Part shown: piece by piece, positions 53,498 to 58,830 of the stretch | Numbering within the stretch: position 1 is the first letter of the stretch | Layout: the number at the start of each line of letters is the position of its first letter | Assembly (NCBI GenBank): GCA_042217555.1 | Contig: JBDGSL010000011.1 | Location: 1-62,857, forward strand | Source of the DNA: Candidatus Nanohalobium sp. | Lineage (GTDB): Archaea; Nanohalarchaeota; Nanosalinia; Nanosalinales; Nanosalinaceae | Reading direction: 5' to 3' | Length of the DNA stretch: 62,857 bases | Position numbers and translations under genes: made by a program | Notes under the pieces: model-generated | Seen by the model: only the letters and a program-made list of their open reading frames with translations | What the model was told of the DNA's origin: nothing | Databases searched by the model: none

Positions 53498-54502
53498 ATG
53501 GCCGAGTGCAGTAAGTGCGGGAAGGAGACGATGAGCTTCACCTGCCGTTACTGCGGTGAAAAGTTCTGCTCTGAGCACCGGCTGCCTGAAAACCATGACT
53601 GTGAAGGATTGGAGTCCGGAAAGAAAGAGGAGTATTCCTCCAGTTCCGGAAATAAGGATGAGAAATGGTTTGATGACAGGTTCTCCAACCGTAAAGAAGA
53701 TACCAGGACAAGTAAAGAGTTTCAGAGACCTGGCTTTCTAAACGAATCAGCAAGGATACTGAAGTCGAATATCACGTTGATCATAATAGGGTTAACTGCT
53801 TTCACCTACATGCTGCATGAGACCCTGCCAGTTGTAAAGGATTTTCTTACTCTTTCACCTGCCCTTACAGATGCAGCAGTTCAGGCAACAAACCAGGCCG
53901 TAGCAGAGTACAGTAACAGTACCGGTCGGAGCCTTCCCACTCCATTCATAGATAAGACTGTCTTGGAGGCACCCTGGACCCTGGCGACAGTGATGCTGGT
54001 TCACGCCAACTTTTTCCACTTCCTGGCGAACATGGCAACGTTCTACTTCTTCGGTACGGCCGTGGAGAAAGCTGTAGGAGGCGTCAAGATGCTGAAGATG
54101 TACATCCTCTCCGGGCTGGCAGCAAGCATCGCAGTAGTTGCGTTCAGAAACCTGCTTTTCCAACTCTACGGCCCTCTACACGGTTCTGTAGCGTTAAGCC
54201 CTATAGTCGGTGCTTCAGGAGCAGTAGTGGCAATGCTAGGTATAGTTGCCATGCTTTATCCGGATGCAGAAGTACTTCTGTACTTTTTCATACCGATGAA
54301 GATAAGAACCGCCGTCTACCTGTTCGGAGGAATGGAGACCTTCAACCTGTTTGCAAAAATATTGGGAGTCCATCTGCCGTTAATAGGTGGTTTTGCTTCC
54401 TCAGCACACCTGGCCGGACTAGCAGCAGGACTTTACTACGGTAAGAAACTTCAGGGCAGTTACAGCAGGAGGACAGCAGCTTTTGACCCTCTAGGCTACT
54501 GA
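53498..54502 (+). CDS. Rhomboid protease with N-terminal AN1 zinc finger
   Basis: C..C...F.CRYCG..FC.EHRLPE.H.C; H..FFH..NM, GASG, AHLAG. Confidence 0.93.
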   Translation: MAECSKCGKETMSFTCRYCGEKFCSEHRLPENHDCEGLESGKKEEYSSSSGNKDEKWFDDRFSNRKEDTRTSKEFQRPGFLNESARILKSNITLIIIGLTAFTYMLHETLPVVKDFLTLSPALTDAAVQATNQAVAEYSNSTGRSLPTPFIDKTVLEAPWTLATVMLVHANFFHFLANMATFYFFGTAVEKAVGGVKMLKMYILSGLAASIAVVAFRNLLFQLYGPLHGSVALSPIVGASGAVVAMLGIVAMLYPDAEVLLYFFIPMKIRTAVYLFGGMETFNLFAKILGVHLPLIGGFASSAHLAGLAAGLYYGKKLQGSYSRRTAAFDPLGY

Positions 54503-54503
54503 T

Positions 54504-55043
54504 TCACAGTTTTTTGTGCTCTACCTCGTAGTAAGTAACCTCGTTCTCCGTGTCGTTTACGGCCCAGAGCATGGATGCTCTGATGTTGTTAGCAAGTCTT
54601 ACCGCTCTGCTCATTTCCTGGAAGCTGAGAGTATGGTTCTCCGGAACAGCGTGGACAACATACTTGGTATGTTCTCTTTCCCGTTTGTCACCGCTCTTGT
54701 ACGGGTTAACACCTCTAGGATAGACTCTGAAATGCGCACCAAACTTGAAACCTGATTTTACGATATAACCTCTTTCACGCAGATCACTGTACGCAGGATA
54801 CTTGTAAGAAAACTCGTCATCTATCTCATCAAACCTTCTATAGGCTTCGTCACGGCCCATCTCGACGCCTTCAACCCGGAAGACCGTACCTCTGTCCATC
54901 AGGTGAAGAGCCTCACACGGAGAAAGCAGGAGAGAACCATCCTCCATGAACTTACCGTAGTACTTTTCATCATGTATCTCCTCCGCCTTTTCCTCTTCAA
55001 AAACCTTCACACCGTTCTCCGTAAACTCCGCTTCCACTTCCAT
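54504..55043 (-). CDS. endA: tRNA-splicing endonuclease
   Basis: EALHL, YSDLRERGYIVKSGFKFGAHFRVY..H, VTYY. Confidence 0.93.
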   Translation of the reverse strand: MEVEAEFTENGVKVFEEEKAEEIHDEKYYGKFMEDGSLLLSPCEALHLMDRGTVFRVEGVEMGRDEAYRRFDEIDDEFSYKYPAYSDLRERGYIVKSGFKFGAHFRVYPRGVNPYKSGDKREREHTKYVVHAVPENHTLSFQEMSRAVRLANNIRASMLWAVNDTENEVTYYEVEHKKL

Positions 55044-55093
55044 AAAGAACAAGAGGGACAGAAAAACTTTTTCTTGTTAGTGAAAAAATCCAC

Positions 55094-55789
55094 TCAGAAT
55101 CTGGAGAGATCTTTCTGATTTGACTCATCTATTATCCGCTGGGCTGTACTCCAGCTCTCTCTGGTCTCCTCCGGCAACCTACCCTTTTCCTGAAGATGTT
55201 TTTTAAGGAACTGTATTGTCGGTTTGTCATGCGGGTATCCTGATTTGAAGTCGTATCCGTACTTCCTGTGAAGCTCTTCCACATGACTCTCTCGGGCTGA
55301 CTTCGCCACGATAGATGCGGCAGACACGATAGGAAAAGTTTCGTCTGCGCCGTGCTCAGCAGTAAACTCCAGATCTATATCAGTCTTCATCAGTTCCTGA
55401 ACCTTTCCTATGAAACGGTCGCCGTCAGGCTCCGGCAAATCCATGAAGACTTCATCCGGCTCCGCCCTGTCAACCACCTCGGCAAAACCCTTCAACTCTA
55501 TCTCGTTCAAGCTCATCACGTCCCTAAGATCATCGATTTTGGAGGCTGTGAACTCAACCAGAAACACCTCACCGAGATCACCCAGTTCCCCCCTCAATCT
55601 CTCCCTCTTCTTATCCGACAGTTTCTTCGAATCCTTGACTCCTAGTTCCTCAAGCTTTTCTAAATCTTCTTCAGTGGCCGTGAAGCCGCCGATGAACATT
55701 GAGCCAATGACGGGGCCTTTAGGCTAAACAAGACCCGGAGATCCTGTCTATCTGCCTGCCTCGTCAATGCCCAGAATTTTTTTCGTCAC
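55094..55789 (-). CDS. rnhB: Ribonuclease HII in two exons (55752-55789 and 55094-55718)
   Basis: GTG start; removing 33 nt restores ILGIDEAGRGPVIG; DSKKL, VSAASIVAK, SGYPHD, RESW; 220 aa. Confidence 0.92.
55719..55751 (-). other. 33-nt BHB-type pre-mRNA intron in rnhB
   Basis: Two in-frame TAG; AGGC/GCCT 4-bp helix with AGA and AAA bulges and an ~11-bp intron stem. Confidence 0.88.
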
Positions 55790-56796
55790 AATACAATCAC
55801 CTGTTTTCCCGTTTCAGTAGTTGTCCACTCATGATCCTTCTTTTTTATAAGCCCAAGTTCCTGAAGCCGATGGAGATTCTTGTAAGCTGAATTATTGGTA
55901 ACAGAGAAATGCTCAGATATCTGACCTACCTTCAGATATTGATTTTCAAGCAGTTCCAAGTAGTTACTCTTCACATCTGAGATTATCACCGAGTTCTGAT
56001 TGTCTCTAATCCAATATGTCTGGCTGCCTGCTTTGTAATTGGTTACTTTTCCTTCTTTCTTCAGCTCCATAAGTACATCACAGAGCCGTGCCTGAGACCT
56101 GTCGAAAACCTCAGCCAGTTCTGTAGTCTGGTACGGCTCAGTCAGCTTTTCATAAGTATTCTGCTTCAATTCACCCTTCAGATAGTGTTCCTCCTGAAAA
56201 CTGCTGTAAATCTGTTTGAACTTTTCCCTTTTTCTTGGATGTAGCTTACAGATCTCATATTCTTCGAATATGTCCCAGTTGGGCTTCTTAGTGACGACAT
56301 AAGACCTTTCTTCGGGCCTGAAAAAGTAACTAATTCCTAAATGATCCATCATTTCCTCCAGAAATTCATCCCTTTCTCCCTGAGAAATCCTCAAACGCCT
56401 AGACTTCCTGGCACCCTCATAGACACTTCCTTCACCCGCAAAGAAACCCTGAAGAATATACGAGTACATATCCGGATCATCCTTTACCCTTGAAACCTTT
56501 TCCTTCCACTCCTCCACCAAGTCTCTGGACGCTAGACGGATGATATAGTAGGTCTGAGTGGCTCTATCGTCAGTGTACAGAGAAGTCTCAGCCCCATCAA
56601 ATGTATTGTAATCAGAGCCCTCACTCGGACGATACACATAAAGCCTGTAATTATCAGCATCAAAAAGACTTTGAAGCTTTCTGTAGAATAAATCCACTAA
56701 TTCAAAGCAGCTGTTAGTAAAAGTAATCTCAGCAATAGTTTTAGTATCTCCCTCAGCCAACCAAAGTCCTACACACCTAGCTAAGTCTTTATCCAT
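55786..56796 (-). CDS. Free-standing LAGLIDADG endonuclease with C-terminal wHTH domains
   Basis: VGLWLAEGD and LQGFFAGEGS motifs; stop overlaps the rnhB start (GTGA). Confidence 0.88.
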   Translation of the reverse strand: MDKDLARCVGLWLAEGDTKTIAEITFTNSCFELVDLFYRKLQSLFDADNYRLYVYRPSEGSDYNTFDGAETSLYTDDRATQTYYIIRLASRDLVEEWKEKVSRVKDDPDMYSYILQGFFAGEGSVYEGARKSRRLRISQGERDEFLEEMMDHLGISYFFRPEERSYVVTKKPNWDIFEEYEICKLHPRKREKFKQIYSSFQEEHYLKGELKQNTYEKLTEPYQTTELAEVFDRSQARLCDVLMELKKEGKVTNYKAGSQTYWIRDNQNSVIISDVKSNYLELLENQYLKVGQISEHFSVTNNSAYKNLHRLQELGLIKKKDHEWTTTETGKQVIVL

Positions 56797-56918
56797 GTAC
56801 AATACCTCTTTTCTAGAGTTATAAAGCCTTTTATCAAGTTATAGAGCGCCGAGTTCTACCGCCTCTACCAATATGAATGGTTTAAAAGAGTAAATGCCGA
56901 CTTTATGATTACAATCAT

Positions 56919-57063
56919 AGCGGGGTAGAGCAGCCAGGAGTGCTCGTCGAGGTGTTCCGTTCCGTGCGGTTCGCCGCGAACGGCTCATAAGAACACTCCA
57001 TTTTAGCGATTAAACCTTATCTGAGACACCCGGAGGTCGCTCGTTCAAATCGAGCCCCCGCTA
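56919..57063 (+). tRNA. Initiator tRNA-Met(CAT) with two introns (56950-56981 in the anticodon stem; 56990-57027 at 37/38)
   Basis: Spliced AGCGGGG TA GAGC AGCCAGGAGT GCTC G TCGGG CT CAT AA CCCGG AGGTC GCTCG TTCAAAT CGAGC CCCCGCT A; A1-U72 and three G-C pairs mark the initiator. Confidence 0.92.
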
Positions 57064-57071
57064 TATTACGT

Positions 57072-57623
57072 TTACTTGACCTTTGGCTTATTTTTAGCTA
57101 TTTCATAAATCTCTTCTTTGTCGTTTATTGACGGAACAGTTAGATAGTATGAATCATCACAGTTAGGACCATTAAGATTAGATTCAACCTTAATAGTTTC
57201 AAACAGTTTTTGAAGGTCTTTTATACCTGATTTATTCATCGACTTTATTTTAAGCCTGTTATACGTTGCTTCGTGATAGCCTTCATCGCGGACAAAGGCT
57301 CTGATCCATTCAATCTTCTTTTCAAAATCCAGATTAAATATCTTTTCTGGTATTCTCCACTCTTCAGAAGAAAGTTCTCCAAATTTACGCTCCAACTCAT
57401 CTGCTATCCTTATTGATTTCACTCTAACCTCATCTTCACGTTCGTACATTTTGACATCGAAGAGCTCACCCATATCATCCCTAAATTGGTCCAAGTTATC
57501 CTCATCGACATTAGTGTAGAGCACCATAGCTCTTCTATTACGATCAGACTCCGAAGTTTCATATCTAGTTATACATCCGTCACCACAAAGCCTAGCATGA
57601 ACTCTAACAAGCTCTACTTTCAT
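57072..57623 (-). CDS. Free-standing LAGLIDADG endonuclease
   Basis: HARLCGDGCI and WIRAFVRDEG motifs; AT-rich. Confidence 0.85.
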   Translation of the reverse strand: MKVELVRVHARLCGDGCITRYETSESDRNRRAMVLYTNVDEDNLDQFRDDMGELFDVKMYEREDEVRVKSIRIADELERKFGELSSEEWRIPEKIFNLDFEKKIEWIRAFVRDEGYHEATYNRLKIKSMNKSGIKDLQKLFETIKVESNLNGPNCDDSYYLTVPSINDKEEIYEIAKNKPKVK

Positions 57624-58679: not shown

Positions 58680-58830
58680 GCCGGGGTAGCCAAGTGGCCA
58701 AAGGCGACGGACTCAAGACCTCAAGTTCTCAAGCCATCTGGGGAGAGAACGAGGACTCAGAAGCAAGTCCTTAACGAGCTTCGATATCCGTTCCCGCAGG
58801 GGTTCGCAAGTTCGAATCTTGTCCCCGGCA
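58680..58830 (+). tRNA. tRNA-Leu(CAA) with a 68-nt intron at 37/38 (58718-58785)
   Basis: GCCGGGG TA GCCAAGTGGCCAAAGGC G ACGGA CT CAA G^A TCCGT, variable arm, GCAAG TTCGAAT CTTGT CCCCGGC A. Confidence 0.93.

Follow-up and report, generated by a model that had tools for sequence, protein, structure and literature searches.

Watanabe et al. are said to have reported in 2002 an intron in the cbf5 pre-mRNA of Crenarchaeota. According to passages of a later account (Yokobori et al., 2009; PMC2738675), this BHB intron is cut between residues two and three of the bulge, and its origin is called unclear. Besides the leader of HVO_1309 in Haloferax volcanii, cbf5 provided the only BHB intron reported in archaeal mRNA as of 2020, as stated in an excerpt of PMC7714728. 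A second group of comparable systems comes from phage homing: in F-CphI/psbA and mobE/nrdB, as far as excerpts of PMC6083498 and PMC2790892 go, a free-standing nuclease gene lies beside a nuclease-less intron, and this intron occupies the expected cleavage site of the nuclease.

Here we describe a 33-base insert in rnhB, the gene for RNase HII, of a genome of salt-lake Candidatus Nanohalobium (G000; other Nanohaloarchaeota genomes carry the numbers G001-G067 and so on, and loci of the family treated below carry L-numbers). It was found in a window of 62,857 nucleotides, which is the whole stretch of DNA that was analysed. From the sequence and its comparison with relatives we put the probability at about 85% that the insert is a relaxed BHB (tRNA-type) intron in the rnhB mRNA. 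By the same comparison, it is a member of a widespread family of putative rnhB mini-introns that is linked with an upstream LAGLIDADG gene. As judged from the passages of PMC2738675, the candidate shares with the cbf5 intron its place in a protein-coding gene, a relaxed motif, shortness within the size range of tRNA introns, cuts (here predicted) between the second and third base and a patchy pattern of gain and loss. It differs in sitting inside a catalytic motif, in building part of the BHB motif from conserved codons and in being known from sequence alone; moreover, the cbf5 intron belongs to Crenarchaeota, whereas the putative rnhB introns occur in DPANN archaea and some Nitrososphaeria, with the LAGLIDADG gene directly upstream. 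Like the HVO_1309 intron of H. volcanii, it would present the splicing endonuclease with a substrate beyond tRNA and rRNA, in an mRNA; however, the HVO_1309 intron lies in a 5' UTR leader and its processing is shown in vivo and in vitro in the parts of PMC7714728 drawn on here, whereas the rnhB intron lies in a reading frame and is predicted. The phage introns, in turn, are self-splicing group I introns that go with other nuclease families (PMC6083498 and PMC2790892, in excerpt), in contrast to the predicted archaeal BHB type found here. A literature search, with subscription journals and supplementary files outside its scope, returned no report of an rnhB intron; the one paper that contains the search terms, PMC3082918, has them in unrelated places. 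In the literature searched, the rnhB mini-intron family is apparently undescribed.

The rnhB gene lies on the minus strand and runs from a GTG start at 55789-55787, overlapped (GTGA) by the TGA with which the upstream gene ends, to a stop codon at 55096-55094. Translated without splicing it reads ...LGIDEAGR*TGSPGLV*PKGPVIGSMF.... On this strand the 5' exon (55752..55789) extends from the GTG start to the AG of an Arg codon (V/M-TKKILGIDEAG plus AG). The insert (55719..55751, read from 55751 to 55719) comprises 33 bases with in-frame TAG codons at 55750-55748 and 55726-55724, separated by nine codons, and the 3' exon (55094..55718) opens with the last base of the Arg codon and runs on with GPVIGSMF... 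up to the stop codon. Once the 33 bases are removed, AG and A come together as part of GGC AGA GGC CCC, and DEAGRGP is restored, a motif that is uninterrupted in 28 of 28 relatives with a readable rnhB start in this comparison. The D-E of DEAGRGP are residues of the catalytic strand of RNase HII. The 3' exon matches the Pfam family RNase_HII with an E-value of 5.4e-31, and an ATG-started ORF at 55094-55699 (201 aa) covers positions 15-198 of the 199 positions of this profile. Annotators would call this ATG ORF and hence an rnhB without the D-E of the catalytic strand. A sequence-only reading of this DNA had proposed the borders of the insert with its two in-frame stops, the exact recovery of DEAGRGP by cutting after the second base of each bulge and a truncated rnhB as the outcome of standard annotation. 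The borders, the cuts and the recovered motif of that reading are right.

Folding of 55775..55700 in the sense direction gave a minimum free energy (MFE) structure of -35.5 kcal/mol with a z of -4.46; none of 200 shuffles folded equally well. The antisense strand folds less well (-26.1, z -2.29), which points to a structure at the RNA level on the rnhB strand. In the MFE fold, the 5' strand of the central helix is AGGC at 55754..55757, formed by the last base of the Ala codon and by the Gly codon, and its 3' strand is GCCU at 55721..55724 on the intron side (all elements of the fold are on the minus strand). The 5' bulge AGA (55751..55753) would be cut between 55752 and 55751. Inside the central helix stands a hairpin (55725..55750) with an 11-bp stem, including 3 G.U pairs, and a UCCG loop (55739-55736). 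The 3' bulge, with the predicted cut at 55719/55718, is AAAG (55717..55720) in the MFE fold or, in the alternative, AAA next to one C-G pair. The outer helix pairs the D-E-A exon codons (55758..55766) with the G-P-V exon codons (55708..55716) through 5 + 3 bp with one A.C mismatch. Both bulges lie 3' of their central-helix strand, the same topology as in the tRNA introns of this genome. The motif appears to depart from the strict hBHBh' form, since the 3' bulge has four bases or else three that are closed by a lone C-G pair. Of the AGGC/GCCT helix with 3-nt bulges that the sequence-only reading had described, the helix and the 5' bulge AGA stand, but the 3' bulge counts four bases in the MFE fold; its description of the outer helix as weak, and hence of the motif as a relaxed BHB, agrees with the fold in both forms of the 3' bulge.

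BHB-like shapes are common by chance. Pair counting in the whole genome (inner stem of at least 11, outer of at least 3, length 20-306) returned 72 motifs with the true topology against 63 with the mirror topology, and the chance of such a shape is roughly 1e-7 per exact position and length. Our argument therefore rests on the exact coincidence of predicted cuts and insert borders and on the comparative data. A genome-wide search for BHB shapes that merge two open frames gave 6952 candidates, which were mostly neighbouring genes, and was dropped; a second intron candidate at about C20:6950 resolved into a tandem pair of NUDIX genes. No Rfam family is present at the insert site. By blastn-short the insert has no second copy in the genome (best other matches 13-14 bases), and a 21-base piece of it has no exact match in genome_contigs or viral_contigs.

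The insert is present in DNA contigs of several sequencing runs. The region 54400-56948 is covered with zero differences both by a 4871-base contig from X1, a run that may be the source of this DNA, and by a 4727-base contig of run X2, from another sample of the same study. In run X3, from another study, two contigs span the insert with few differences, and one of these is a base short at 55736, within the hairpin loop, so that its insert has 32 bases. Within the Nanohaloarchaeota, rnhB was matched in 69 of 70 genomes, and the insert was found in six of the 67 genomes with a readable rnhB start (G000, G028, G038, G041, G057 and G067; the start is unreadable in G005, G012 and G037, which are outside this count). 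The six carriers are spread over four GTDB families, and rnhB is uninterrupted in the other 61.

A scan of genome_contigs with an alignment of the upstream gene found 92 relatives, and the 80 best were retained. An RNase HII match starts 25-100 bases behind the LAGLIDADG gene in 78 of the 80 loci; in the two others the contig ends there. Among the 78, rnhB is broken between DEAG and GP in 65 loci (64 recognized by script and L141 by eye). The remaining 13 are uninterrupted (L092, L097, L099, L100, L102, L108, L112, L113, L115, L145, L152, L153 and L155); 11 of them carry a variant motif (DDSGRGP, DDAGRG, DEAGKGP or DEARRGP), and the other two use CGT for Arg. The lineages of the family are DPANN archaea and some Nitrososphaeria. 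A protein scan of metagenome_contigs gave just two distant loci with 35-40% identity.

For comparison of the inserts we used a table of 65 rows, made up of G000 and 64 loci. The inserts measure 20-73 bases, their length is not a multiple of three in 49 of the 65 rows and 57 rows contain an in-frame stop, yet about 200 downstream codons align with RNase HII in every locus. In one fixed register, four of four central pairs form in 52 of the 65 rows. The junction codon is AGA in 56 rows, and the 3' bulge layout N-N-A-G recurs across the family; in rows with AGT or AGC as 5' bulge, the invariant Arg is obtained only from a cut after the second base. Ten of the 13 rows that misfit the register are explained: a register one base earlier accounts for four, one two bases later for another four, and the standard register with one mismatch for two. 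For L109, L128 and L131 no register was found that gives the conserved product, and these three of 65 rows count against the proposed scheme. Individual hairpins illustrate the range within the family. That of L089 (the G067 record) resembles the hairpin of G000, with three stem substitutions and every pair kept, and L091 (G057) shares the frame AGGC/AGA ... GCCU/AAA but with an 11-bp hairpin that differs altogether.

The pairs also covary. The two variable pairs of the central helix, which involve the synonymous third base of the Ala codon and of the Gly codon, occur as five or six pair types and are formed in 54 and 55 of the 65 rows, compared with shuffle means of 26.2 and 28.5; none of 1000 shuffles reached these counts. 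Likewise, positions 0-6 of the inner stem are paired in 46-62 of the 65 rows, a level again reached by 0 of 1000 shuffles. The outer helix gives no covariation signal; it consists of conserved codons, so that covariation cannot test it. A second check used 42 of the 65 rows, picked by hand (40 in agreement with the register, together with L090 and L094). In this set 83.9% of the cells are paired, as against 63.8% after shuffling (0 of 500 shuffles as high), but the set omits long inserts as well as near-duplicates, and of the 13 misfits it omits 11; its central-helix figure is therefore biased by choice. The covariation score of these rows is 0.573 versus 0.196 in shuffles, sliding of the partners leaves 33-48% paired, and all 11 pairs of the inner stem change on both sides. 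Inserts at the same site, lengths that shift the frame, intact frames downstream and covariation together argue for removal at the RNA level and not for a pseudogene.

We propose that in the transcript the exon sequence AGGC before the Arg codon pairs with GCCU of the insert, that the 11-bp hairpin stands inside this central helix and that the D-E-A and G-P-V codons pair outside it. The splicing endonuclease EndA would then cut after the second base of each bulge, and RtcB would ligate the exons to AGA GGC CCC, yielding the intact active-site strand DEAGRGP. A 33-nt piece would be released, probably as a circle. Genes for both proteins are present. The gene next downstream of rnhB is endA (54504..55052, minus strand), a single copy in the genome, which encodes a tRNA-splicing endonuclease of 182 aa (Pfam PF01974 and PF02778) that is presumed to be the enzyme cutting the rnhB intron. 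By size this EndA is alpha4-like, and its closest solved relatives in the PDB include the enzymes of M. kandleri, ARMAN-2, M. jannaschii and N. equitans. The two genes lie on one strand, 41 bases apart, an order kept in six of seven loci of relatives that were inspected (L003, L004, L005, L006, L009 and L014, with or without an insert in rnhB); in G002 (L002) a different ORF of 423 aa follows rnhB. The RtcB gene is located on contig C12 and itself holds a large in-frame insert.

Introns were predicted by ARAGORN in 35 of the 42 tRNA genes of the genome, many of them with canonical motifs. The tRNA-Asp(GTC) gene at C12:63540-63648 has an intron of 33 bases and a 3' bulge of apparently four bases (CATC). 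Since a seven-base anticodon loop is required, the cut in this tRNA must fall after the third bulge base, one later than proposed for rnhB. Applied to rnhB, the same rule would shift the frame, which counts against productive splicing; the family-wide need for AG + A, as read from the aligned loci, argues for an earlier 3' cut in rnhB. Two further tRNA genes were noticed in the window. A tRNA-like gene at 56918-57064 (plus strand), which has a CAT anticodon loop and one intron or more, is miscalled by ARAGORN as an intron-bearing 'tRNA-Stop' and is without an Rfam report. In the runs, contigs from other organisms leave out 72 bases here (56949 to 57022), and depth over 56857-56947 reaches roughly tenfold the level on either side. 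At 58680-58830 (plus strand) lies a tRNA-Leu(CAA) with a 68-base intron by ARAGORN (Rfam tRNA, 44.1 bits), which the default scan missed.

The possibility that a recent insertion of a 33-bp hairpin inactivated rnhB, with an accidental resemblance to a BHB motif, appears very unlikely to us. It would account for the two in-frame stops, for a shape of a kind that arises frequently by chance, for the restriction of the insert to six of 67 genomes of the phylum and for its company of other broken genes in this genome. These other cases are a nucleotidyltransferase gene (C12:36917-37653) with a -1 frameshift at C12:37237 and a nitroreductase-like gene in fragments (C44:6060-9639), the only other broken conserved genes found with 1037 ORFs of G004 as probes; 677 of these probes were matched in G000, and rnhB is alone among them in having a short internal insert with stops. 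Against a pseudogene stand the interruption of the same rnhB site in the 65 of 78 loci from many lineages, with hairpins that differ and yet share one frame and covary in their pairs, the frames that are intact although 49 of 65 inserts would shift them, and the match to rnhB in nearly every genome of the phylum. The gene itself bears no marks of decay. It keeps all 51 positions on which the other 28 sequences agree, the sole nominal deviation being the junction codon when read unspliced, and it has 6-10 unique substitutions as compared with 8-12 in G002 (outgroups G004, G024, G016 and G003), with no rate acceleration and no further stops or frameshifts. Signs of relaxed selection on rnhB, which had been named beforehand as what would speak for a pseudogene, were looked for and not found.

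The comparison with G004 also revealed six large in-frame inserts in conserved genes of G000, of 483-1506 bases and all multiples of three (C45:7779-9244, C12:82664-84087 in RtcB, C54:9914-11076, C75:13069-14564, C75:32910-34390 and C50:5415-5896). These are probably inteins, and six probable inteins would make this a genome rich in selfish elements. An intein reading of the rnhB insert itself was rejected.

Just as improbable as inactivation is a regulatory role in which EndA cuts the transcript without productive ligation, or without full ligation, so that the element throttles the rnhB-endA transcript. The adjacency of the two genes on one strand and their conserved order would suit such a role, and in Haloferax the BHB processing of the HVO_1309 5' UTR matters for expression, according to an excerpt of PMC7714728. 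However, throughout the family the cuts would restore the invariant motif to the base, a precision that is needless for mere cleavage, and the linkage with endA is known from loci of Nanohaloarchaeota only. Least credible, and close to negligible, is that the ribosome deals with the insert, either by bypass of the T4 gene 60 type or by read-through with an 11-residue loop: a hairpin after the break, a stop one codon past it and GGC codons on both sides recall bypass, but a hop between the GGC codons (GGC...GGC), the sole matching pair, would remove the invariant Arg-Gly, the stop comes one codon too late instead of directly behind the matching take-off codon, the 11 residues of a read-through product would land inside the catalytic strand, and the many family inserts that are not multiples of three speak against any ribosomal solution, as does the 32-base version in run X3.

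With a BHB intron in the rnhB mRNA as the favoured reading, we turn to the gene upstream. It occupies 55786..56802 on the minus strand and encodes a protein of 338 aa with two LAGLIDADG motifs and two winged-helix domains; Pfam reports LAGLIDADG_3 (26 bits, cut-off 22.5) and TrmB. Among 1189 candidates, 323 homologues were found at E <= 1e-3. Those in other DPANN lineages share about 40-45% identity and are almost all about 340 aa long, and the names attached to homologues include Nanohaloarchaea, Woesearchaeota, Pacearchaeota, Nanoarchaeota and others. The motifs read GLWLAEGD and GFFAGEG, and E15 and E122 are invariant in an alignment of 30 sequences. An AlphaFold (AF2) model, with a mean pLDDT of 93.7, has the alpha-beta-beta-alpha-beta-beta-alpha fold of LAGLIDADG proteins with an acidic residue ending both motifs. 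Its best PDB matches by Foldseek were E-DreI, bI3 maturase, WhiA, I-DmoI and I-Tsp061I.

With I-DmoI and I-Tsp061I the protein shares the monomeric two-motif LAGLIDADG fold (Foldseek E 5e-7 to 2e-5), but it has two extra winged-helix domains, and while the genes of these two enzymes reside inside large rRNA or tRNA introns, the 338-aa gene lies outside the insert, upstream of the 38-base 5' exon. WhiA is a transcription factor with a LAGLIDADG scaffold and a helix-turn-helix part and is not known to have the catalytic residues. The 338-aa protein resembles it (PDB 3hyi) in combining a LAGLIDADG core with a C-terminal helix-turn-helix part and in its well-conserved length; unlike bacterial WhiA, the 338-aa family keeps the acidic residues, and the gene is decayed or lost in three of the six intron-bearing Nanohaloarchaeota genomes. 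It was found in two of 26 Nanohaloarchaeota genomes searched. Of the five carriers other than G000, G067 and G038 have an intact copy, in G057 the gene contains an internal TAG, and in G028, where an ORF of 233 aa is left, its middle part with the second motif is gone; no copy was found in G041, whose genome is 80% complete and whose contig extends 970 bases upstream. A role of the upstream protein as a maturase is unlikely, since the insert persists in G057, G028 and G041 despite the broken or missing gene. The linkage of the upstream gene with rnhB is strict, and among the 68 rows within reach of a crude script its stop overlaps the rnhB start by four bases in 36. Farther upstream, beyond the tRNA-like gene at 56918-57064, an ORF of 183 aa (57072-57623, minus strand) has two LAGLIDADG-like motifs and no Pfam match; related ORFs of 212-215 aa occur near a tRNA-Met upstream of rnhB in G002 (L002, 203-850) and G003 (L014, 572-1210).

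The arrangement of gene and insert fits collaborative homing, with the gene 38 bases upstream of the insert and both present in 65 of 78 loci. We suggest tentatively, and at slightly less than even odds, that the 338-aa protein is an active free-standing homing endonuclease that targets the intron-less DEAGRGP site and that the mini-intron protects its carriers, the two spreading jointly by gene conversion. On this proposal the mini-intron would split the nuclease target in rnhB, and conversion would carry the nuclease gene, the 5' exon, the intron and a short stretch of the 3' exon jointly from one DPANN archaeon to another and also into Nitrososphaeria. The changed motif in the uninterrupted loci may be another way to lose the presumed target site. 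The 5' exon of G000 has a 13-codon form as in G067, while the congeners G002 and G001 have a 12-codon form. Over the first 20 codons past the insert, G000 is 0.68 identical to G067 and 0.67 to G057, compared with 0.55 to G002 and 0.48 to G001. Over codons 41-160, divided into six stretches of 20 codons, G002 is clearly closest in five (0.77-0.88), and for the whole 3' exon the identity to G000 is 0.76 in G002 versus 0.68 in G067. To judge from 60 bases and six genomes, this pattern looks like a short conversion tract and like a homing element going through its cycle of decay.

A second host gene would mean that protein-spliced mRNA introns are no crenarchaeal oddity, with the putative rnhB introns occurring in dozens of species of very different lineages and always in the catalytic motif. 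Automatic annotation will call such rnhB genes truncated or split, and a core enzyme of replication and repair will then be under-counted in small genomes. The linkage with a LAGLIDADG gene offers a testable route for the gain and spread of the intron, a matter left open in the work on cbf5. If collaborative homing is indeed at work, this would be its first archaeal case and the first with a protein-spliced BHB intron, and it would explain how a BHB intron enters a protein-coding gene.
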